DNA from: an uncultured Actinomycetes bacterium
Lineage (GTDB): Bacteria; Actinomycetota; Thermoleophilia; Solirubrobacterales; 70-9
Assembly (NCBI GenBank): GCA_963720015.1
Contig: CAVREA010000004.1
Location: forward strand, 213,141-277,140
Length of the DNA stretch: 64,000 bases
Reading direction: 5' to 3'
The translations under genes and the position numbers were made by a program. Positions within the stretch are counted from its first letter, which is position 1, and each line of letters begins with the position of its first letter. Below, piece by piece: positions 2,188-23,300 of the stretch. The notes under the pieces are model-generated. The model searched no databases and was not told where the DNA came from. It was given only the letters and a program-made list of their open reading frames with translations.

Positions 2188-2475
2188 CCCGCCCGACCTT
2201 CGATCCGCCGCGGGAGGCGATCAGGCACGCGCGAGCAAGAGGTGCCACTCGTTGCGAGGGCTGTACCTCCCGTCCGCGCGGCGGTGGGGAGCCAGCGCTT
2301 CGACGATCGCCTCTCGTAGTCAGGACCGAGCCGCGGCGGGTTGACCCGTTATTGCGGCGGGGTGCCTGCCGGACCCTCGGTCCACCCAAAATTCGACCCA
2401 CGTTGCAGCACTAGTGACGATCCAGTTCAGGCGTGGGAAGCCGATAACCCCAGCGTGTGGAAATTGCCAGTGCCA

Positions 2476-2555
2476 CGGTGTCAAAGGCAAATCCGTCGCG
2501 AGGCGGAGACGCAAAGCAAACGGAGCTCGTTCGCGAGCTGGCCGGGCTACCACCG
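2476..2555 (+). promoter_or_regulatory. Candidate c-di-GMP-I (GEMM-I) class riboswitch aptamer in the pilA leader
   Basis: Elements read directly:
- P1: CGGUG (2476-2480) pairs with CACCG (2551-2555).
- Junction: UCAAAGGCAAA.
- P2: UCCGUC-GCGA-GGCGGA (2492-2507), a 6-bp stem with a GNRA loop.
- GACGCAAAGC (2508-2517).
- P3: CGG-AGCUCG-UUCG-CGAGCU-GG-CCG (2521-2544).
- GGCUAC before the P1 3' strand.
The block GGCAAA + 6-bp stem + GNRA + 6 nt + GACGCAAAGC has the same lengths and near-identical conserved bases as my recollection of V. cholerae Vc2 (GGCAAACCAUUCGAAAGAGUGGGACGCAAAGCC). GCCGGGCUACC resembles the conserved 3' junction. It lies 68 nt upstream of the pilA ATG in a locally lower-GC, 430-nt non-coding gap. 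Confidence 0.6.
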
Positions 2556-2623
2556 AGGTATTCATTCACCAAGTGGCTTCACGCGGGGCCCTGGCGCAAT
2601 CGATAGGCACCTAGGAGGTTCCT

Positions 2624-3094
2624 ATGCTGCAGAAGATGCGTGAGCGCCTCGGCGCCCGCCTCCGTAACGAGGAGTCCGGCTTCACTCTGGTCGAGCTCCT
2701 GGTCGTCATGCTGATCCTCGGCATCCTCGCCGCGATCGCCATCCCGTCCTTCTTCAACCAGAGGGACAAGGCCGGTGACGCAGAGGCCAAGGCCGGCGCG
2801 AAGACCGCTCAGACCGCGATGGAGACGTACGCGACTGAGAACAACGGCAACTACACCGGCGCTGACGTCGCCGCCCTGGTCGCAATTGAGCCGACCCTGG
2901 GTGGGCTGGGAGCCGATCTCACGGTTTCCGGTGTCGCCGCCAACACCTACACGGTGAGCGTCAACTCGAGCACCCTGAACGATTTCAACATCGCCCGGGG
3001 CGCCGGCGGAGCGCTGACCTACACCTGCACGGTCGATGCCTCCAACGGCACCAACCGTGGTGGCTGCCCCACCGGCGGCAACTGGGACAACTAA
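2624..3094 (+). CDS. pilA: Type IV major pilin (prepilin with N-terminal methylation motif), 156 aa
   Basis: The leader is followed by G/FTLVELLVVMLILGILAAIAIPSF, the class III signal peptide with conserved E5. AGGAGG sits 6-11 nt upstream of the ATG. A strong hairpin follows the stop. Confidence 0.9.
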   Translation: MLQKMRERLGARLRNEESGFTLVELLVVMLILGILAAIAIPSFFNQRDKAGDAEAKAGAKTAQTAMETYATENNGNYTGADVAALVAIEPTLGGLGADLTVSGVAANTYTVSVNSSTLNDFNIARGAGGALTYTCTVDASNGTNRGGCPTGGNWDN

Positions 3095-3126
3095 CCCGGT
3101 CCACCGGTAGCAGCTGACGCACTGAG

Positions 3127-3160
3127 AGGGGCGGGCCCGCAACATGGCCCGCCCCTTGTG
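3127..3160 (+). terminator. Intrinsic-terminator-like hairpin after pilA
   Basis: AGGGGCGGGCC (3127-3137) pairs perfectly with GGCCCGCCCCU (3146-3156) across an 8-nt loop, and is followed by UGUG. It could act as an attenuator separating the highly expressed pilin from downstream genes. The U-tract is weak. Confidence 0.55.
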
Positions 3161-3220
3161 CGTCGAGGCTGCCCGCCGTCAAGCCTGAGCCTGCCCCGCC
3201 GATAACAACCTGACCAGCGC

Positions 3221-6196
3221 ATGAACATGAACCAGATCAAGAGCATTCTCAGCCGGGCCTTTCCCTGCGCGCTCGTAGCCGCGGCTTTCCTCGCGCCGCT
3301 GGCAAGCAGCGCCGCGGCGGCGCCTGCCTCCTTCCTGGCCGTGTCCGACGACGGCAGCCGGGCGCTCTTCTCGACCAGTGAGGCCCTGGTCCCCGGCGAC
3401 ACCGACTTCCGCATCGACGTCTACGAGCGCGCCGGCGGGATCACCCGCCTGCTCTCGACCGGGCCGACCGGCGGCAACAGCGCCTTCGACGCGACCTTCG
3501 GCGGCGCCTCCAACGACGGCCTGCGGGTCTTCTTCACGACCAGCGAGCGCCTCGTGCCCGGCGACACCGACAACGCGCGCGACGTGTACCTGCGTACGGG
3601 CGGCGCGACGACGCTGATCTCGACCGGCCCTGCAGGCGGCAACGGCGACGCCGACGCGGACATCACTGGGATCACCGACGACGGGACGCTCGCGTACTAC
3701 GTCACCAACGAGCAGCTCACCAGCGCCGACCAGGACACCTCCTTCGACATCTACTCCCGCTCGGACACGGCCACCGAGCTGATCTCGACCGGGCCCGGGG
3801 TCGGCAACGGCCCTCACACCGCGGTCTTCAACGGCGCCTCCGCCGACGGCTCGGAGGTCGTGTTCACGACCAGCGAGCAGATGGACGTCGCCGACACCGA
3901 CCTGCGCCCCGACATCTACATGCGCACCGCCGGCACGACCTCGCTCGTCTCGATCGGCCCGAACGGCGGCAACGGCGCCATCGACCCGATCTTCTTCGAC
4001 ATCAGCACCGATGGCACGAAGGTGTTCTTCGAGACCAACGAATCGCTCGTCACCGCCGACACGGACAGCGCCGCAGACGTGTACGAGCGCGACGGAAGCA
4101 CCACCGCCCTCGTCTCGGCCGGCGGGGTCGCCTCCAACGCCGCCAACTACGCCGGCTCCTCCGCCGACGGGTCCCGCGTGTTCTTCGAGACCGACGAGTC
4201 CCTCAGCGGCGTTGACGTCGACTCGGTCTCCGACGTCTACGAGCGGTTCTCGGGGACGACCACGCTGATCTCGACCGGACCCTCCGACGGGCCGGGCGCG
4301 TTCCCCGCCTTCTTCCGGGCGGCATCCACCGACGGGACCCGGGTGATCTTCAGCACCGCCAAGGCCCTGACCGCGGCCGACGTCGACTCCTTCGCCGACG
4401 TCTACGAGACCTCCGGCGGGACGACCACCCTGATCTCGGCGGGCACGGCCGGGCTCCCGGCGTTCTTCAGCCAGGCCTCCGCCGACGGGTCGAGTGTCTT
4501 CTTCCTCACCCAGGAGGAGCTCTCCGGCTCCGACACCGACTCGCAGGCCGACGTCTACCGGGTCAACGGCGGCACCACGCTGCTGATCTCTACGGGCCCG
4601 GGCGTGACCGGCGGCAACGGCCCCTTCGACCCGCAGCTCACGGGTATCTCCGCCGACGGCTCGAAGGCCTTCCTGCAGACCCAGGAGCGCCTCACCACCG
4701 ACGACCTCGAGAACGAGGAGGACATCTTCGAGCGCAGCGGCTCGACGACGGTGCTGGTCTCGATCGGCAACTCCGCCCCCCTCGGACCCGGGGTCCCGGT
4801 GCTGACCGGCTCCTCGCCCGCCTCGCCCGCCAACGCCAACTCGCCGCTGATCGTCGGGCAGTCGGACCCCGGGACGACGCTGAAGCTCTACTCGTCGGCG
4901 AACTGCACGGGCGCGCCGGTCGCCACGGGCACCGCGGCCGAGCTCGCCTCGCCGGGCATCCAGGTGACCGTCGCCGACGACTCGAGCACCACCTTCAGGG
5001 CGCAGGCGACCGACTCCCTCGGTGACACCTCGACCTGCTCGTCGACCTCGGTCACCTACGTCGAGGACTCCCTGGCACCAGGCCCCCCGGACCTGACGGC
5101 GACCGACCCCGGCTCCCCCGCCAACGACAACACGCCGCTGGTCAAGGGTGACGCGGAGGCCGGCTCGGCGGTCGCCCTCTACACCACGGACGACTGCTCG
5201 GGAGCGGCCGCTGCCACCGGCTCCGCCGCCGCCTTCGCCTCACCCGGGATCCAGGTGACCGTCGCGGACGAGTCGACCACCGTCTTCCGCGCCCGCGCCA
5301 CCGACGCCGCGGGCAACGTCTCGGCCTGCTCCTCCGGCTCGATCTCCTACCAGGAGGTCTCGAGCGCGCCGGCCGCTCCTGCGCTCGCGGCGTTCGGCGC
5401 CGCCTCGCCCGCCAACCAGAACAGCGTGCACGTGAAGGGCACCGCCCCGGCGGGCTCCACGGTCGAGATCTTCAAGGGCCCGTGCACGGGGGCCCCGGCG
5501 GCCACCGGCACCGCGGCGGAGCTCGCCGGAGCCGGGATCGTCGTCTCGGTCGTCAACGACTCGACCACGACCTTCCGCGCCACCGCGACCCGTTTCGGCG
5601 TCGAGTCGCCCTGTTCGAACGGGGTGACCTTCGTCGAGGACTCGACCAGGCCCGGGACGCCGCGCCTCGACGTGCCGTCCGCGCCCCGGAACGACAACTC
5701 GCTGCGGATCGAGGGCACGGCCGAGGTCAACTCGACGGTGAAGCTCTACCGGCAGGCCTCCTGCGGCGGAGCGCCGGCGCTCGTCGCCGCCGCCGCCGAG
5801 CTCGGCTCCGGCATCGTCATCCAGGTCCCGGACAACTCGGTCACGACCCTCTACGCGCTCGCCGTCGACCGGGCTGGAAATAACTCGGCCTGCTCCTCTG
5901 AGCCGGCCGTCTACACCGAGGACTCGGCGGCGCCCCGCACCCGGATCACCTTCGCGCCCGGGGTGAAGACGCGCGACCGCACGCCGACCTTCCGCTTCCG
6001 GGACGTCACCGGCAACGAGCACACCCGCTTCCTCTGCAAGCTCGACCGGCGGCCATTCCGCTCCTGCGGCACGCCGCTGCGGCTGCGGAAGCTGGGGCCG
6101 GGCAGGCACACCTTCCGGGTCAAGGCCGTCGACTACGCCGGCAACCGCGAGAAGCGGGCGAGCAAGCGCCGCTTCACGGTGGTCAGGACCCGATGA
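3221..6196 (+). CDS. Secreted repeat protein, 991 aa: Sec signal peptide, about 9 PD40/TolB-like beta-propeller repeats, 4 Ig-like repeats and a C-terminal related domain. Candidate pilus-associated adhesin.
   Basis: The N-terminus MNMNQIKSILSRAFPCALVAAAFLAPLASSAAAAP looks like a signal peptide. The stop overlaps the ATG of the next (minor pilin) gene as ATGA (6193-6196). It is a single intact 2.97-kb ORF with strong internal periodicity. Confidence 0.8.
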   Translation: MNMNQIKSILSRAFPCALVAAAFLAPLASSAAAAPASFLAVSDDGSRALFSTSEALVPGDTDFRIDVYERAGGITRLLSTGPTGGNSAFDATFGGASNDGLRVFFTTSERLVPGDTDNARDVYLRTGGATTLISTGPAGGNGDADADITGITDDGTLAYYVTNEQLTSADQDTSFDIYSRSDTATELISTGPGVGNGPHTAVFNGASADGSEVVFTTSEQMDVADTDLRPDIYMRTAGTTSLVSIGPNGGNGAIDPIFFDISTDGTKVFFETNESLVTADTDSAADVYERDGSTTALVSAGGVASNAANYAGSSADGSRVFFETDESLSGVDVDSVSDVYERFSGTTTLISTGPSDGPGAFPAFFRAASTDGTRVIFSTAKALTAADVDSFADVYETSGGTTTLISAGTAGLPAFFSQASADGSSVFFLTQEELSGSDTDSQADVYRVNGGTTLLISTGPGVTGGNGPFDPQLTGISADGSKAFLQTQERLTTDDLENEEDIFERSGSTTVLVSIGNSAPLGPGVPVLTGSSPASPANANSPLIVGQSDPGTTLKLYSSANCTGAPVATGTAAELASPGIQVTVADDSSTTFRAQATDSLGDTSTCSSTSVTYVEDSLAPGPPDLTATDPGSPANDNTPLVKGDAEAGSAVALYTTDDCSGAAAATGSAAAFASPGIQVTVADESTTVFRARATDAAGNVSACSSGSISYQEVSSAPAAPALAAFGAASPANQNSVHVKGTAPAGSTVEIFKGPCTGAPAATGTAAELAGAGIVVSVVNDSTTTFRATATRFGVESPCSNGVTFVEDSTRPGTPRLDVPSAPRNDNSLRIEGTAEVNSTVKLYRQASCGGAPALVAAAAELGSGIVIQVPDNSVTTLYALAVDRAGNNSACSSEPAVYTEDSAAPRTRITFAPGVKTRDRTPTFRFRDVTGNEHTRFLCKLDRRPFRSCGTPLRLRKLGPGRHTFRVKAVDYAGNREKRASKRRFTVVRTR
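3332..4780 (+). repeat. About 9 tandem ~50-aa coding repeats (S.DGS.V.F.T.E.L...D.D...D.Y.R..G.TTLIS.GP.GGNG)
   Basis: The repeat cores are SDDGSRALF, SNDGLRVFF, TDDGTLAYY, SADGSEVVF, STDGTKVFF, SADGSRVFF, STDGTRVIF, SADGSSVFF and SADGSKAFL. Each is followed by DTD...DVYER..G.TTLISTGP. This pattern is typical of PD40/WD40-like beta-propeller blades. Confidence 0.7.
4790..5930 (+). repeat. 4 tandem ~90-aa Ig-like coding repeats
   Basis: The recurring unit is SPAN.N.P...G.A..GS.V.LY....C.G.P.ATG.AAE....GI.V.V.D.STT.FRA.A.D..GN.S.CSS..V.Y.ED. A fifth, diverged unit follows (5930-6190: TPTFRF...FLCKLD...C...GRHTFRVKAVDYAGN). Confidence 0.7.
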
Positions 6197-6751
6197 CCCG
6201 CCGGGCAGACCTCGAGCAGGGCTTCACCCTGATCGAGCTGATCGTCGCGATGGCGATGCTGATGGCGGTTCTCTCGATCGCCGTTCCCCTGATGACCACG
6301 GCGATGCGCAGCGAGCCGGAGCTGCGGGAGAAGTCGGCGAACGTGCAGACCGCGCGCGTGGTGCTCGACCGTCTCACCCGCGAGATCAGGGAGGGCGTCT
6401 CCGTCGTCAGCTCGACCCCGACGACCCTGGCCTACCGCACCTACACCCGCAGGTCCACCTGCGGCGGGACCGCGATCCTGCCCGCCGGCGCCCCCGCGAT
6501 GCTCTGCCGCGTTACCTACCAGTGCGCGGCCGGTACCTGCACCAGGACCGAGGCGAAGGAGGACGGAACCGGTCCGGGCCCCGCGGTGCAGTTCATCACC
6601 GGCCTGCAGAGCAACAGCATCTTCTCCTACACCCCCGCGGGGGACCCGACGTTTCATCGAGGTCTCACTCGTCCTGCCGAATCCCGACGGCACCGGGAAC
6701 CTGTCGATCGAGGACGGCGCCACCCTCCGCAACGCGACCCTCTCGAACTGA
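6193..6751 (+). pseudogene. Minor (pseudo)pilin with a prepilin-type N-terminus. There is an apparent +1 frameshift near 6652, or alternatively read-through fusion to the next pilin.
   Basis: The N-terminus is MTRRADLEQGFTLIELIVAMAMLMAVLSIAV. After ...YTPAGDPTF the alternative frame reads IEVSLVLPNPDGTGNLSIEDGATLRNATLSN and stops at TGA 6749-6751, which overlaps the ATG at 6751 (TGATG). The in-frame continuation is an Arg/Pro-rich stretch typical of out-of-frame translation. Confidence 0.65.
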
Positions 6752-8187
6752 TGAGGACCGCGCCCCGCAACGAGGACGGGTTCACGATCATCGAGGTGCT
6801 GGTCGCCGCGCTGATCATGGTCCTCGGCCTGCTCGCCACCTTCCAGGTCCTCAACGCCGCAACCACGAACGCGAGCCGCGCCAAGTCGGGTCAGGTCGCG
6901 ATCAACGTCGCCCAGCAGGAGATGGAGAAGCTCCGCGCCCTGACCTGGAGCCAGCTCGCCCTGACCGCGTCCCCGGGCTTCTCGAGCAACCCGAAGAACC
7001 CGCTCAACCGGGTCAACACCAGCGACGGGAGCTTCGCCCTGACGGCCGGCCCCAACGGCAACTGGGCGACGCTCGTCCGCAACGGCGGCTCCCTCAACGG
7101 CGGCGGCGTGATCAGCGGCGGAACGGTGGACCCTGGCCCCCAGTCGTTCACGTCCGGCGACGTCAGCGGCCGCATCTACCGCTTCATCGTCTGGCGGGAC
7201 GACCCCACCTGCCCGACCTCCTACTGCCAGGGCGTCCAGGACTACAAGCGGATCATCGTCGCGGTCAAGCTCAACGTCACCGGCCAGCTCAACTACGACC
7301 GCCGCTATGTCGAGATCACCTCCGACTTCATCGATCCCAACGACAGCCCCGTCACCGAGCCGACGCCGGGGGCGAACGGGGTCGTCACCGGCCAGCAGTT
7401 CTTCCTCTCGGACTCGCCCTGCGCGGCGAGCGGCAGCACCGTTCGCCAGGACATCACCGGCGAGCACCTGCTCCACAACACCCTCGGCACCTGCGCCAGC
7501 GGCCCGCAGACGGGGGTCACCCCGGGCGCGCCCGACGCGCTGATCACGGGCTATCCGCCCGACCCGGAGCCCGCGAACAACCTCGTCCCGCTCAGCTACG
7601 ACTACTCCAACGACTTCTACCTCGAGCCGACCCCCGACTACGACAAGGGCGTGCAGATCCGCCGCCAGGACACGAGCGGCTGCAGCTACACGCCGACCGG
7701 GTCGAACCCGGAGTCGATGATCCACCGCTGGGTCACGGATCCGATGCCCGCCTCCTTCACGATGACGGGCTCGACGACGCTCGAGTTCTACACCCGCACG
7801 ATCAACAGCAGCTCGCACACCGGCAGGATGTGCGCCTACCTCTTCACCCGGTCCGAATCCGGGACGCCGCCGGTGGCGACCGACGCGAGGTTCATGAATA
7901 TAGGCGTGGGATCGATCGGCTTCGGGCAGCCCTACTTCGGCTACCAGCCCGGCGGCAGCAACCTCTGGCCTGGCACCTGCACAGGGGTCGTCGTCAACGG
8001 CTGGACGCGGTGCAGGCTGGCGATGAGCCTCCCGCCGACCACGATCCCCGTCGGCCGGCGGCTCGGCGTCGCGATCAGCGTCGACCGCGCCCTGACCCCC
8101 GCGGACGCCCTGCCCTTCCTCTACGACCATCCGGAGTACCCGAGCCGGCTCGAGGTCGACACGACGACGCCCCTGGACATGGGGTAG
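6751..8187 (+). CDS. Large minor pilin, ~478 aa: prepilin N-terminus plus a ~440-aa C-terminal domain
   Basis: A second class III signal lies inside ORF 6193..8187: MRTAPRNEDGFTIIEVLVAALIMVLGLLATF. A large globular region with several Cys follows. Confidence 0.75.
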   Translation: MRTAPRNEDGFTIIEVLVAALIMVLGLLATFQVLNAATTNASRAKSGQVAINVAQQEMEKLRALTWSQLALTASPGFSSNPKNPLNRVNTSDGSFALTAGPNGNWATLVRNGGSLNGGGVISGGTVDPGPQSFTSGDVSGRIYRFIVWRDDPTCPTSYCQGVQDYKRIIVAVKLNVTGQLNYDRRYVEITSDFIDPNDSPVTEPTPGANGVVTGQQFFLSDSPCAASGSTVRQDITGEHLLHNTLGTCASGPQTGVTPGAPDALITGYPPDPEPANNLVPLSYDYSNDFYLEPTPDYDKGVQIRRQDTSGCSYTPTGSNPESMIHRWVTDPMPASFTMTGSTTLEFYTRTINSSSHTGRMCAYLFTRSESGTPPVATDARFMNIGVGSIGFGQPYFGYQPGGSNLWPGTCTGVVVNGWTRCRLAMSLPPTTIPVGRRLGVAISVDRALTPADALPFLYDHPEYPSRLEVDTTTPLDMG

Positions 8188-8189
8188 CC

Positions 8190-8945
8190 ATGGGAGCCGC
8201 CGCACCGATCGCCTTTGCATGGGGGCTCGTGATGGGCTCGTTCATGACCGTCGTCGCCCACCGCGTCCCGCGCGGCGAGTCGATCGTCGGCCCCCGGTCG
8301 CGCTGCCCGCAGTGCGGCGCGACGATCGCCGCCTACGACAACGTGCCGGTGCTGTCCTGGCTGATGCTGCGGGGCCGGAGCCGCTGCTGCAGGACGCGGA
8401 TCTCGGCCCGGTATCCGCTCACGGAGCTCGCCCTCGGGCTGCTCTACGCGCTCACGGTCCTGGTGCTCTGGGACAACCCCGCGGAGGTCGCTCTCGGCCT
8501 CGTCTTCGTCTCGGTGCTCGTGGTCGTCACGGTCACCGATCTCGAGCGGCGGATCATCCCCAACGCGGTGCTGCTCTACGGGGCGGGGGCCGGTCTCGCG
8601 ATCATCGCCTTCACCGATCCGGCCCAGCTGCCCGAGCACGTCGCCGCCGGAATCGCCGCCGGCGCGCTGCTGCTGCTCGCCGCCCTTCTCTACCCGCGCG
8701 GCATGGGAATGGGCGACGTCAAGCTCGCCGCCGTGATGGGGCTCTTCCTCGGGCGGGCGGTCGGCCCCGCCCTGCTGATCGCGCTGCTGGCCGGGTCCGT
8801 CGTCGGGATCGGGATGATGATCCGGTACGGGGCGCAGGCGCGCAAGGCCGCGATCCCGTTCGGGCCGTTCCTGGCTCTCGGAGGGTTGGTCGGCATGCTC
8901 GCCGGCGGCGAGCTGGTCGATGCCTACCTCGACAGCTTTTCCTAG
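8190..8945 (+). CDS. pilD: Prepilin peptidase / N-methyltransferase PilD (A24 family), 251 aa
   Basis: The ATG at 8190 is 3 nt after the upstream stop. Motifs: CPQCGATIAAYDNVPVLSW (Zn-finger-like CxxC), VTDLERRIIPN and GMGMGDVKL (the two catalytic Asp motifs), and IPFGPFLALG. Confidence 0.9.
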   Translation: MGAAAPIAFAWGLVMGSFMTVVAHRVPRGESIVGPRSRCPQCGATIAAYDNVPVLSWLMLRGRSRCCRTRISARYPLTELALGLLYALTVLVLWDNPAEVALGLVFVSVLVVVTVTDLERRIIPNAVLLYGAGAGLAIIAFTDPAQLPEHVAAGIAAGALLLLAALLYPRGMGMGDVKLAAVMGLFLGRAVGPALLIALLAGSVVGIGMMIRYGAQARKAAIPFGPFLALGGLVGMLAGGELVDAYLDSFS

Positions 8946-9033
8946 TACTGAGTAACTCGCCGGGTCCTCACGGCTACAGCAATCGTCCACGGCGGCCGAT
9001 TGATGGTTAACCGCCGAGGGGGCGGCCAATCCA

Positions 9034-10137
9034 ATGCTCAGAAGCAGGAAGAACAACACCACGGTCGGGCTCCACATCGAGGCGGCCGCCATCACCGCCA
9101 CCGAGGTGCGCGGCAATGGCATCCCGCATGTCGAGGGAGCCGGCGTCGAGCCGCTCGAGCCCGGGGTCTTCGGTGACGGCGAGGTCTCCAACGAAGAGGC
9201 GCTCACCGACCACCTGAAGTCGCTCTTCGCCCGCCAGAAGCTGAGCCGCAAGGTGCGGATCGGAGTCGGCAACCAGCGGGTGATCGTGCGGGCGATGCGC
9301 CTCCCCGCGATCGAGGACCCGAAGGACCTTGCGGCAGCCGTCCGCTTCCGCGCCCAGGAGCAGATCCCGATGCCGCTCGACCAGGCGGTCCTCGACCACC
9401 AGGTCGTCGGCGGCGTCCCCGCCCGGGACGGCGAGCCGGCCCAGGTGGACGTCGCCGTGATCGCCGCCCGCCGGGACATGGTCGCGTCCTTCGTCGAGCC
9501 GGTCCGCAAGGCCGGCCTCGACCCGGTGGGAATCGATCTCTCCGCCTTCGGCATGATCCGCGCCCTGGCCGGCGCCCACGGCCTCGCTCCCGCGGGAGCG
9601 GCGCCGACCGCCCCCGGCGCCGACGGCCCCCCGGTCCCGGGCGCCTACACCGTTCTCTACTGCCATCTCGGCGACGTCACCAACCTCGCCGTCGCGCGCG
9701 GCGCGGGCTGTCACTTCGCCCGGGTCTCCTCCTTCGGCGCCGACGCGATCGCCGCGCAGCTCGCCGAAGCCGCGGAGCTGACGATGGAGCACGCTCGGCA
9801 GTGGTTCACCCACGTCGGTCTCGAAGTTCCGGTCGAGTCGGTCGAGGGAGATCCGAGGATCGTCAGCGCCACCCGCGATGCCCTGCAGCGGGGCGCGGCA
9901 GACCTCGCCAACGAGCTGCGGCTCTCGCTCGACTACTACGGCGCGCAGGAGGCCGTCTCCCCCGTCGACAAGGTCGTCCTCTGCGGTCCGCTGAGCGCGA
10001 TCGCCGGACTCCCCGGGGAGCTTGAGCGCAGCCTCGGCCTGCCGATCGAGGTCGCCAGGCCCGACGCGCTGGAGAAGTTCGGCGCGCCGACCGCCACCCA
10101 GCTGACCCTGTCCTACGGACTTGCCCTGCAGAGCTGA
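9034..10137 (+). CDS. pilM: Type IV pilus assembly ATPase-fold protein PilM, 367 aa
   Basis: The ORF is intact and has an actin-like fold signature (VGLHIEAAAITATEV..., RIGVGNQRVIVRAMRLP, PVGIDLSAFG). Its stop overlaps the pilN start (ATG at 10137). Confidence 0.85.
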   Translation: MLRSRKNNTTVGLHIEAAAITATEVRGNGIPHVEGAGVEPLEPGVFGDGEVSNEEALTDHLKSLFARQKLSRKVRIGVGNQRVIVRAMRLPAIEDPKDLAAAVRFRAQEQIPMPLDQAVLDHQVVGGVPARDGEPAQVDVAVIAARRDMVASFVEPVRKAGLDPVGIDLSAFGMIRALAGAHGLAPAGAAPTAPGADGPPVPGAYTVLYCHLGDVTNLAVARGAGCHFARVSSFGADAIAAQLAEAAELTMEHARQWFTHVGLEVPVESVEGDPRIVSATRDALQRGAADLANELRLSLDYYGAQEAVSPVDKVVLCGPLSAIAGLPGELERSLGLPIEVARPDALEKFGAPTATQLTLSYGLALQS

Positions 10138-21469: not shown

Positions 21470-22087
21470 TCAGGGGCCGATGTGCACCCTGCCGTTCGAT
21501 TTCGCCCGCTCGGCCAGGTCACCGGCCTTGTCGAGCGCCTCCTGGAGCGTTGTCAGCACCCGCGCCAGCATCGCCATCCGCTCGGCCTCGCCGCGCATCT
21601 GCAGCAGCTCCTGCTTGGTCTCCGCCGGCAGCTCGACCCGGGCGGCCAGACCGTAGGCGGTCGCCTCCGCCAGCTCGTCGTCGGTGGGCCGTTCGCCCGC
21701 AGCCATCTCGGCGAGGTCGGCGAAAGCGCTGCGGGCCGCCGCCGCATCGGGAGCCTCGGCCGCCGGCTCCTCCTCTTCGACCAGCTCGACCTCGGCCGCC
21801 GGCTCCTCCGGGTCGTCGAAGCGGTCGAGCACCCGGAATGGGATGCCGCCGCTGACGACGACGTTGAGGCGGCCGTCCTCGAAGCGCTCGAGGACCTCGG
21901 TGACGTGGGCCGTGCAGCCCATCGAGCGGGCGCCCTCGGCGTCGCGGAGCACGATCCCGAAGGGCTCCCCCGCCTCCAGGCAGCGGCCGATCATCCGCTT
22001 GTAGCGCTCCTCGAATATGTGCAGCGGAATCACCTCTCCGGGGAGCAGCACCAGCGGCAGCTCGAATATCGGCAGCGATTGCGGCAC
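21470..22087 (-). CDS. Lon protease N-terminal (LON substrate-binding) domain protein
   Basis: LPIFELPLVLLPGEVIPLHIFEERYKRMI...GEPFGIVL is the LON-N signature. The maximal ORF runs to 22171 but would then overlap the divergent cyclase start. The GTG at 22087 is my preferred, uncertain start. Confidence 0.7.
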   Translation of the reverse strand: MPQSLPIFELPLVLLPGEVIPLHIFEERYKRMIGRCLEAGEPFGIVLRDAEGARSMGCTAHVTEVLERFEDGRLNVVVSGGIPFRVLDRFDDPEEPAAEVELVEEEEPAAEAPDAAAARSAFADLAEMAAGERPTDDELAEATAYGLAARVELPAETKQELLQMRGEAERMAMLARVLTTLQEALDKAGDLAERAKSNGRVHIGP

Positions 22088-22163
22088 TTCCTCCAGTCTA
22101 GGAATCCCCGGGGACCGGGCCGTCGCGACGCTCCGCTGCCGGGCAGTAGAGAATGAGCCCGGG

Positions 22164-23300
22164 ATGAGCAAGGACGGGATCGATTTCGAGGCGGAGGGGC
22201 TGCTCGGCGACCTCGAGGGGGAGCAGCGCCAGGCCCGCCTCGCCCTGCTCGAGGACCTCGCCGAGGACGGCGCCGAGCTCGAGGAGCTGCGCGAGGCTAC
22301 GGCCGCCGGCCGTCTGGCGCTGCTGCCGGTGGAGAGGGCGCTTGCGGGCGACGGGCCGCGCTACACGCCGGAGGAGGTGGCGGAGAAGGCCGGCGTCGAT
22401 CTCGAGATCCTGCAGCGGTACATCGCCGCTCTCGGCCTGCCGGTTCCCGAGCCTGGCGAGCCGGTCCTCACCGACCACGACGTCGACTCCGCGAAGCGCG
22501 TCAAGGCCTTCGAGGAGATCGGGCTGCCCGAGGAGGGCACGCTTCAGGTCGCCCGCACGATCGGGATGGCGACGGCCCGGATCGCGCAGGCCAACCGCGA
22601 GCTGATCCGCGACGCGCTCGTCCACGAGGACGACAACGAGCACGATCTCGCGCTGCGGTTCGCCGCGGCGGCCAGGGTGATGATGCCGCTGGTGGCCCCG
22701 ACCCTGGCCTACTCGATGCAGATGCACCTGATCGAGCAGATCCGGCGGGACGTGATCGGCGCCGCCGAGATCGCCTCGGGCGAGGTCGGCAGCGCCACCG
22801 ACGTCGCGATCTGCTTCGTCGACATGGTCGACTTCACCAAGCTCGGGGAGCGGGTAGACGTCGAGGAGCTGGGCCACGTCGCCGGTCGGCTCGAGGAGGT
22901 GGCGACCTCGGTCGCGAAGTCGCCGGTGCGCGTCGTCAAGCTGATCGGCGACGCCGCGATGCTGGTCTCGGCCGAGGTCGCGCCGCTCTTCGACGCCGCG
23001 CTCCAGATCATCGAGGCCGCGGACGCCGAGGGTGAGCAGTTCCCCCAGCTTCGCGGCGGAATCGCCTTCGGTACGACTCTCGGGCAGGGCGGCGACTACT
23101 ACGGCAGGCCGGTCAACCTGGCCAGCCGGATCACCGGCGTGGCCAGGCCGAGCAGCCTCCTCGCCACCGCCGAGGCGGTCGAGGCGGCTGGTGACGCCTT
23201 CCACTACTCGTTCGCCGGGGTGCGCTCGCTGAAGGGGATCGACGGCAGGGTGCGGTTGTTCCGGGTCCGCCGCGAGCCCCGGAAGGGCTCGAACGGCTAG
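22164..23300 (+). CDS. Class III adenylate/guanylate cyclase with an N-terminal regulatory region
   Basis: The catalytic-domain motifs are VAICFVDMVDFTKLGERV, VKLIGDAAMLV and RGGIAFGTTLGQGGDYYGRPVNLASRI. The start is the ATG at 22164. Confidence 0.8.
   Translation: MSKDGIDFEAEGLLGDLEGEQRQARLALLEDLAEDGAELEELREATAAGRLALLPVERALAGDGPRYTPEEVAEKAGVDLEILQRYIAALGLPVPEPGEPVLTDHDVDSAKRVKAFEEIGLPEEGTLQVARTIGMATARIAQANRELIRDALVHEDDNEHDLALRFAAAARVMMPLVAPTLAYSMQMHLIEQIRRDVIGAAEIASGEVGSATDVAICFVDMVDFTKLGERVDVEELGHVAGRLEEVATSVAKSPVRVVKLIGDAAMLVSAEVAPLFDAALQIIEAADAEGEQFPQLRGGIAFGTTLGQGGDYYGRPVNLASRITGVARPSSLLATAEAVEAAGDAFHYSFAGVRSLKGIDGRVRLFRVRREPRKGSNG

Follow-up and report, generated by a model that had tools for sequence, protein, structure and literature searches.

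How is the major pilin of an early-branching actinobacterium controlled, and does its messenger carry a sensor of its own? The question is raised by a window of 64,000 nt, the whole stretch of DNA analysed here (contig CAVREA010000004.1), from a soil actinobacterium of the order Solirubrobacterales, class Thermoleophilia, phylum Actinomycetota. At the start of the window lies a type IV pilus cluster, in which pilC is followed by pilA, and in the gap between these genes a first-pass annotation had noticed an element resembling the GEMM-I aptamers, the class I riboswitches for cyclic di-GMP (c-di-GMP). The gap exists, but it is 436 nt long (2188-2623), not 430 nt as given there. The gene that follows it is:

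2624-3094, plus strand: pilA, major type IV pilin of 156 aa, with the leader peptide ...EESG followed by FTLVELLVVM (Pfam N_methyl, E = 4e-9)

The explanation that best accounts for the locus as a whole, and which we consider likely, is a c-di-GMP-I riboswitch in the pilA leader, transcribed from a WhiG-type promoter, which would exchange a long-range helix (LR) for the closing stem P1 of the aptamer and thereby act as an OFF switch.

The Aptamer

RF01051, the c-di-GMP-I covariance model of Rfam, matches positions 2476-2554 of the plus strand with 53.4 bits, well over the 35 set as its gathering score; E is 1.3e-7 with both strands of the 64-kb window searched. Model positions 1-87 of 87 are covered, and no other Rfam match in the 64 kb exceeds its threshold. 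The GEMM-I-like aptamer proposed in the first-pass annotation is thereby confirmed, and the elements listed there, from the junction segments to P2 with its GCGA loop, P3 with its UUCG loop and a 5-bp P1, are present at the positions that it gave:

2472-2559, plus strand: c-di-GMP-I (GEMM-I) aptamer, recognised by RF01051, by its fold, by our own covariance model R1 and by covariation
2472-2480 with 2551-2559, plus strand: full P1 of the predicted fold
2476-2480 with 2551-2555, plus strand: 5-bp closing P1, CGGUG/CACCG
2483-2491, plus strand: junction segment AAAGGCAAA
2492-2497 with 2502-2507, plus strand: P2, UCCGUC/GGCGGA, with the GNRA cap GCGA at 2498-2501
2508-2517, plus strand: junction segment GACGCAAAGC
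2515-2548, plus strand: P3, with a UUCG loop at 2530-2533 and a 2-nt bulge, GG, at 2540-2541
2542-2551, plus strand: segment GCCGGGCUAC

The minimum-free-energy fold of 2470-2560 consists of the same three helices, with P1 lengthened to 9 pairs with one mismatch. The three-helix junction, made of P1, P2 (a 2-bp base and a 6-bp stem) and P3, is thus reproduced by the fold and is backed by covariation. The fold energy of this segment is ordinary compared with shuffled sequences (z = -1.5) and therefore proves nothing by itself; the covariance model is the decisive test.

The ligand contacts of the Vc2 aptamer, G20, A47 and C92 (numbering after Smith et al. 2009), are taken by us to correspond to G2486, A2513 and C2550 of the window. 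Two neighbouring classes were considered, both in a search of 2190-2700 with permissive filters, and neither fits. The model of the c-di-GMP-I-GGC variant, RF03167, scores 53.9 bits, which is under its own threshold of 59, and its consensus, GACGCGAAgC, has G at the position equivalent to A47, where the window (GACGCAAAGC) has A, as does the RF01051 consensus, GACGCAAAgC. The c-di-GMP-II model RF01786, named in the first-pass annotation as a control, finds no match there even at E <= 10. By every feature compared at the sequence level, the element is a canonical class I c-di-GMP (GEMM-I) riboswitch in the 5' leader of pilA.

Conservation in Related Genomes

The comparison set consisted of 80 related loci from Solirubrobacterales genomes, anchored on PilC; the PilC relatives, at 52-75% identity, come nearly all from metagenome-assembled genomes of this order. 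Of the first 16 related loci, 11 are matched by RF01051, with 47-60 bits, and R1 was built from the related sequences matched by RF01051. With R1, one complete aptamer per locus was found in 40 of the 80 loci, on the pil strand every time, with scores of 76-108 bits for these aptamers and 95.9 bits for the window; one locus, L048, has an additional copy truncated by the contig end. Each of the 40 complete related aptamers, like that of the window, has a pilin open reading frame (ORF) next to it downstream, at a distance of 55-70 nt from the end of the aptamer model, or 5 nt in L027.

The window, the 40 complete related aptamers and the copy cut by the contig end form the 42 rows of alignment A2. 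In it 97.1% of the cells are paired, compared with 30-50% when the 3' partners are slid by 1-3 columns. The compensatory changes in orthologous pilin leaders that the first-pass annotation had named as a check are found: 10 pairs show changes on both sides, five of them in P2 and four in P3. P1 has one double change, in a single sequence, and its remaining variation is one-sided. The bases at the contact positions are constant across the model alignment (G in 42/42 for the equivalent of G20, A in 42/42 for that of A47 and C in 41/41 for that of C92), and the P2 loop reads G-Y-G-A in 40 of the 42 sequences. According to the first description of the class, GYRA loops occur on P2 mostly without the 11-nt receptor (Weinberg 2007).

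In A3, the alignment of the 40 full leaders, conservation spans the entire leader, beyond the aptamer. Two elements outside the aptamer are invariant in 40/40 leaders, GCCAG just 5' of P1 and GGGG-C-N-CUGGC 3' of the aptamer; the latter lies about 25-50 nt from the aptamer across the leaders and 25 nt from it in the window. A named, cultured species with the riboswitch was sought through homologues of the pilin, which gave 5247 relatives at E <= 1e-10; none was found among the best 120 of these, all of which come from environmental or metagenome-assembled genomes.

The Promoter

Upstream of the aptamer the following elements are predicted:

2421-2447, plus strand: sigma-28 (FliA/WhiG)-type promoter, with -35 TCCA at 2421-2424, a 15-nt spacer and -10 GCCGATAA at 2440-2447
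2455 (plus or minus a few nt), plus strand: predicted transcription start, 7 nt past the -10 element, at the nearly invariant GU that opens the conserved leader in A3

In Rubrobacter, promoters of the form TAAA-N15-GCCGATAA drive genes of the type IV pilus (Schumacher et al. 2021, PMC8325347). The window promoter differs from this consensus by two mismatches, both in the -35 element, and exact copies of GCCGATAA occur only twice in the 64 kb, in the pilA promoter and at 3198-3205. In the relatives the promoter takes the form T(A/C)AAG-N15-G(C/T)CGAT-N-A, with a CGAT core invariant in 41/41 leaders and T(A/C)AAG placed 16 nt upstream of the CGAT element. CGAT stands 27-30 nt ahead of the aptamer model in 39/41 leaders, and at 23 nt in L042 and 35 nt in L027. 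Across 702 kb of related loci the strict promoter motif is matched 38 times on the pil strand and not once on the opposite one. The pilA promoter thus appears to be of the sigma-28/WhiG type, the identity of the sigma factor being read from the motif alone, and transcription probably starts near 2455.

In the Rubrobacter system, WhiG is sequestered in an (RsiG)2-(c-di-GMP)2 complex, that is, the anti-sigma factor RsiG with bound c-di-GMP keeps WhiG inactive, and high c-di-GMP turns the pilus genes off (PMC8325347). RsiG of the single-motif type and WhiG are reported in Thermoleophilia as well, for example in Conexibacter and Patulibacter (PMC8325347). Because a WhiG-type promoter precedes the riboswitch and WhiG is held by RsiG in related actinobacteria, the pilin is probably, by analogy, under two c-di-GMP sensors in series, one at the promoter (RsiG-WhiG) and one in the mRNA (the riboswitch).

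It is also worth mentioning that a second sigma-28/WhiG-type promoter, TCAA-N15-GCCGATAA with one mismatch, is found at 3179-3205; its end is only 16 nt away from the ATG of an ORF of 991 aa (3221-6196), the transcript of which would be leaderless or nearly so. Two related loci, L023 (6062, 6481 and 7280) and L068 (6871, 8154 and 8923), carry three sigma-28-type motifs each, all on the pil strand and in a stretch of about 2 kb, which suggests several pilin-like genes with promoters of their own; each of these loci has one aptamer only.

The Proposed Expression Platform

The first-pass annotation saw neither a terminator nor an anti-Shine-Dalgarno sequence in the leader, and the same was found here: no terminator-like site is present on the plus strand of the leader, and the predicted accessibility of the Shine-Dalgarno (SD) sequence is the same across the states of the aptamer. 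The conserved parts outside the aptamer suggest a different kind of platform:

2466-2477, plus strand: 5' strand of LR, GCCAG-U-GCC-A-CG (GCCAGNGCYYCG in the 5' leader), of which 2472-2477 are shared with the outer 5' strand of P1
2556-2583, plus strand: linker from the aptamer to the G-rich element, H1 region
2584-2595, plus strand: 3' strand of LR, the G-rich element CGGGGCCCUGGC (given also as CGGGGCNCUGGC)
2603-2625, plus strand: ribosome-binding hairpin H3, with AUAGGCACC at 2603-2611, the loop UAGGA at 2612-2616 and GGUUCCUAU at 2617-2625

LR, the pairing of 2466-2477 with 2584-2595 in window coordinates, was predicted by RNAalifold from the 40 full leaders. The program prefers LR together with H1 to the outer part of P1, and an inner P1 of 4 bp stays. 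In most relatives GGGGUC, which extends P1 on its 3' side, pairs with a GACNYC downstream to form H1 (columns 117-122 with 129-134 of A3); this hairpin shows a few compensatory changes in A3 and is weak in the window, with only about three pairs. The LR duplex holds in 27/27 of the distinct strand pairs in the table, which include 11 from leaders that lack the aptamer, and the G-rich element pairs with the 5' leader at a mean of -21.4 kcal/mol, against -16.5 kcal/mol (sd 2.7) for 60-nt windows taken at random from the same loci. In per-sequence folds the unconstrained ensemble is better than the ensemble with full P1 enforced by a mean of 4.5 kcal/mol, and in the five structures displayed the minimum-energy fold of the unconstrained ensemble contains LR. 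The same 5' nucleotides are needed for the five outer pairs of P1 and for the upper half of LR, so full P1 and complete LR are mutually exclusive. LR exists and is retained; that its competition with P1 acts as a switch is what we infer.

The SD sequence, AGGAGG, lies at 2613-2618, with its core in the loop of H3 and the start codon and codon 2 in the stem; of the window's start codon the stem holds the A and U. RNAalifold gave no consensus for the ribosome-binding region, bulges shifting the register, hence per-sequence folds were used here. In them the SD begins inside five or more enclosing pairs in 24 of the 28 distinct leaders, and the stem sequences vary with the pairing kept; examples of pairing with codon 2 are AAAC...GUUU, AGC...GCU and CAG...CUG. 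Codon 2 of the pilin thus covaries with the leader in H3. By inspection of the leader alignment, codons 2 and 5 of the pilins of the main group are UUU (Phe) and AAU (Asn), as in L017 (5586-5600), unlike the genes of the window, in which third-position G+C is about 0.9. The loop of H3 shows A-GGA, and in some leaders another GGA is found close to the 5' end (GUAAAGGAAAC; GUGUGGAAAU in the window). The GGA of the H3 loop and the 5' GGA presumably resemble the CsrA binding sites on sigma-28-dependent flagellin mRNAs.

Three possible outputs were tried and given up. SD sequestration is unsupported, the probability that the SD is unpaired being about 0.6 in the 40 leaders with full P1, with LR and H1, or with no constraint. 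A lock on the ribosome-binding site, in which the freed G-rich element pairs with the first codons, was suggested by the finding that with P1 enforced the site costs 3.8 kcal/mol more to open in 34/40 leaders, an effect absent in the window. It was rejected as a generic G+C effect: the G-rich element pairs with codons 1-20 no better than with random 60-nt windows (median percentile 0.46), and the real codons do no better than synonymous recodings (mean z = -0.52, 3/35 below 0.05). Finally, the 3' strand of H1 as a general anti-SD was discarded; by eye, GACUUCC/GGAGGUC is perfect in L064, L076 and L053 only, and neither the GACACC of the main group nor the window's own sequence pairs in this manner.

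Relatives Lacking the Aptamer

In 19 loci the orthologous pilin is kept and no aptamer is matched:

Pilin loci without the aptamer: L001, L014, L015, L018, L021, L022, L024, L031, L032, L039
The same, continued: L041, L043, L046, L050, L051, L055, L056, L073, L077, with the leaders at roughly 5300-5600 in most

In most of these loci the promoter is of the same type and the ends of the leader are the same. In the delimited leaders just 63-102 nt separate the predicted start from the start codon, which leaves no room for an aptamer. Remnants persist, for example GGUGCCGAAAGGCAA, and L031 and L046 are plain internal deletions, in which P2, P3 and the 3' strand of P1 are gone.

A helix based on GCCAG/YUGG is present in 14/14 of the aptamer-less leaders examined, its upper part being lineage-specific (CCUCGG/CCGAG in L018). 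For 11 of these leaders it was established by duplex calculation, which closed it to loops of 2-30 nt, for L021 and L077 by whole-leader fold or reading, and for L043 by reading. Among the other five are L001, in which the helix is degenerate (GCCAAC...GGC), L039, the leader of which was delimited wrongly, and L022 and L024, for which the promoter had been assigned to the wrong place and which are absent from the duplex table. Because the helix is kept in leaders without the aptamer, LR appears to be selected for its own sake, with the aptamer sitting in its loop.

On a neighbour-joining tree of PilC the 19 loci occupy at least five separate positions, and the largest aptamer-less group is nested inside the main aptamer-bearing clade. 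The simplest reading that this placement suggests is repeated loss of the aptamer.

A different arrangement is seen in L027 (5969-6105). Here the platform is absent, the 3' strand of P1 holds the SD (GGAGG; CCAAAGGAGG), the ATG follows 5 nt past the end of the model, and the 5' strand of P1 can alternatively be paired by an upstream GAGGC. This layout is a textbook translational OFF design, and it is a single case in the data. A metagenome pattern scan for further leaders of this type gave at least 120 stretches; among the 80 loci listed four had the aptamer, none of them before a pilin.

Proposed Direction of the Switch

In the mechanism proposed, the aptamer (2472-2559) would sense c-di-GMP in the pilA leader transcript from within the loop of the conserved LR helix. 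Without ligand LR would form and pilin expression would be permitted. With c-di-GMP bound P1 would win and LR would open, so that about 45 nt in front of the ribosome-binding hairpin H3 would become exposed, and pilin output would drop through poorer initiation, RNase attack or Rho loading.

The aptamer must act, since its binding site is under strong purifying selection, and LR is the only conserved competitor available to it. The LR state should permit expression because the aptamer-less lineages, with intact pilin genes, hold LR permanently, and the ligand-bound state should therefore lower it. The OFF direction is favoured by the layout of L027 and by its accord with the logic of RsiG-WhiG. 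Given that c-di-GMP is bound, we judge an OFF switch to be moderately probable; both the direction and the output step come from this reasoning.

Several points weigh against the mechanism as outlined. SD accessibility is unchanged between the modelled states in thermodynamic folds, and the opening effect of 3.8 kcal/mol vanished under the random-window and recoding controls. The LR strands and both G runs are nearly invariant in the riboswitch-bearing leaders, with one-sided changes only, and because both strands vary so little, covariation cannot separate outer P1 from LR. Ligand binding might even coexist with LR and the 4-bp inner P1, in which case LR would not be the switch. L027 is a lone example, which weakens the argument for OFF that is drawn from it. 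The single-stranded RNA exposed upstream of a structured ribosome-binding site could aid ribosome standby and so turn expression ON. Moreover, among the approximately 45 ORFs of the window that were scanned no gene for WhiG or any other sigma factor, for RsiG, or for a GGDEF, EAL or diguanylate cyclase protein was found.

The last but one of these points leads to the alternative that survives best, an ON switch, in which LR, standing beside H3, shuts the leader, and the P1 locked by c-di-GMP frees a standby platform and raises translation. It is consistent with the position of LR, which ends merely 2-8 nt before the hairpin that holds the start codon, with the lack of any predicted SD-sequestering alternative for the ligand-bound state, and with the pilus-linked cyclic-dinucleotide riboswitches known from Clostridioides difficile and from Geobacter pilM, which are ON switches. 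An inhibitory LR would, however, be odd in view of the LR-type helix kept by the 14 examined aptamer-less leaders with intact pilin genes; the SD of L027 lies inside P1; and ON control would oppose RsiG-WhiG, which leaves the promoter active when c-di-GMP is low. We therefore regard an ON switch as doubtful. Outcomes other than OFF or ON upon c-di-GMP binding, for example no regulation, are unlikely.

One such outcome can be described more closely: the aptamer may still bind c-di-GMP and regulate no longer, being a passenger in the LR loop that is on its way to being lost. The repeated deletion of the aptamer in related lineages that keep the pilin fits this, as does the lack of a conventional expression platform. 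The degree of conservation does not, since at PilC identities of 62-75% to the window the conservation of the aptamer, of the H1 region and of the G-rich element far exceeds that of neutral DNA, the bases of the binding site are invariant and the stems are upheld by compensatory change, and a passenger is accordingly very improbable. A ligand other than c-di-GMP, such as 3'3'-cyclic GMP-AMP (3'3'-cGAMP; GEMM-Ib) or another dinucleotide, is a very slim possibility: GEMM-I variants of changed specificity exist and the RF03167 score is nearly as high as that of RF01051, but the cGAMP class reportedly carries A at the equivalent of G20, where all 42 sequences have G, the other two contact bases are equally constant, the A47 equivalent differs from the G of the RF03167 consensus, and that model stays under its threshold.

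The riboswitch reading can be extended into a fuller picture, which we put forward tentatively and as possible rather than probable. The major pilin would be gated in series by RsiG-WhiG and by a GEMM-I aptamer nested in an older 5' stem that is selected for itself, a kind of platform that is not known to have been reported for this class; the ligand-locked P1 would unzip this stem; and the aptamer, which is cleanly deletable in this picture because the stem functions alone, would have been deleted cleanly at least five times.

Genes and Transcription Unit

Around pilA, the type IV pilus cluster contains the following features:

358-936: fragment of a secretion ATPase
946-2187: PilC
3110-3172, plus strand: G+C-rich hairpin after pilA, with a fold of 3092-3225 at -59.9 kcal/mol (z = -3.5)
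3221-6196: protein of 991 aa with immunoglobulin-like repeats, the matches to which are weak and under the Pfam cut-offs
6193-8187: minor pilins
8190-8942: prepilin peptidase
9004-10134: PilM

Named relatives of pilA are annotated as type IV pilus assembly protein PilA, type II secretion system protein G or prepilin-type N-terminal cleavage/methylation protein. The hairpin that lies directly past the pilA stop codon has the core AGGGGCGGGCC / GGCCCGCCCCUU and is, as modelled, probably a terminator isolating pilA. Because of this strong hairpin the riboswitch probably acts on pilA alone, governing the major pilin as a single-gene unit.

The first-pass annotation had also described a drop of GC in the pilC-pilA gap. 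Such a drop is present, but it is modest and confined to the vicinity of the promoter: GC is 0.71-0.73 in the first half of the gap and 0.57 at 2380-2499. The first 160 nt past the pilC stop codon (2186-2345), with 71-73% G+C, form one long imperfect hairpin, and the fold of 2186-2420 reaches -113 kcal/mol (z = -2.2); this may be the terminator of pilC or another structured element.

The ORF of 664 aa at 6193-8187 contains two prepilin N-terminal methylation motifs, at about residue 10 and at residues 192-216, and is either a fused protein or two minor pilin genes in one frame. An adenylate/guanylate cyclase with a regulatory domain, encoded at 22005-23297, is the sole nucleotide-cyclase gene seen in the window.

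Relation to Known Systems

With the RF01051 riboswitches, such as Vc2 of Vibrio cholerae and Cd1 of C. difficile, the window element has in common the three-helix aptamer with a GNRA loop on P2 and the G, A and C contacts, the junction sequences AAAGGCAAA, GACGCAAAGC and GCCGGGCU-CC, and the location in the 5' leader of a gene concerned with the surface or with motility. It differs from them in having neither a terminator overlapping P3 nor an anti-SD, in the placement of the aptamer in the loop of LR, which competes with outer P1, in its lineage, Thermoleophilia, and in its sigma-28/WhiG-type promoter.

Also close are the pilus-linked riboswitches, in which a cyclic dinucleotide likewise acts on a type IV pilus mRNA. 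The c-di-GMP-II riboswitch of C. difficile pilA1 works by transcription termination and is ON with ligand, and the same holds for the GEMM-I/Ib riboswitch of Geobacter pilM. The former belongs to another RNA class, RF01786, which has no match in the window leader, and in contrast to both, the window riboswitch appears to regulate the major pilin alone, is probably OFF and does not involve a terminator. The RsiG-WhiG system of Rubrobacter (PMC8325347), from a sister class of early-branching Actinomycetota, has in common the promoter consensus before pilus genes and the same second messenger. There, however, the switch is a protein acting on initiation, whereas here an RNA sensor lies downstream of such a promoter, its dependence on WhiG being suggested by the motif only.

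The association of the class with pili is old, since GEMM was linked with pilM, pilO, pilQ, pulF and cpaA in its first description, in which Proteobacteria, Firmicutes and Planctomycetes were named as the phyla concerned and Actinobacteria were not among them (Weinberg 2007). In a full-text search, the literature coverage of which is incomplete, no paper was found that joins a riboswitch with Thermoleophilia, Conexibacter or an actinobacterial pilin, and the word riboswitch is absent from PMC8325347 and from its 2026 follow-up preprint on c-di-GMP- and WhiG-dependent control of pili. Already established are the riboswitch class, its ligand and its link with pilus genes; for the lineage and the wiring no earlier description was found in this search.

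Significance

What is known of GEMM-I itself is left unchanged by this finding, and any pipeline that runs Rfam would flag the element. Its meaning lies in the placing of an RNA sensor of c-di-GMP in an early-branching actinobacterial lineage, in which the control of pili has been ascribed to a protein sigma/anti-sigma switch. Of moderate interest beyond this are the probable two-tier control by c-di-GMP, the platform in which the aptamer is nested in a stem, and the loss of the aptamer on repeated occasions. Combined with the naturally occurring series of deletions, the platform offers a comparative set for the study of how a riboswitch is wired into an existing leader and removed from it. 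If both sensors act on pilA, a quick shut-off of the existing pilin mRNA would be added to the slower control at the promoter.

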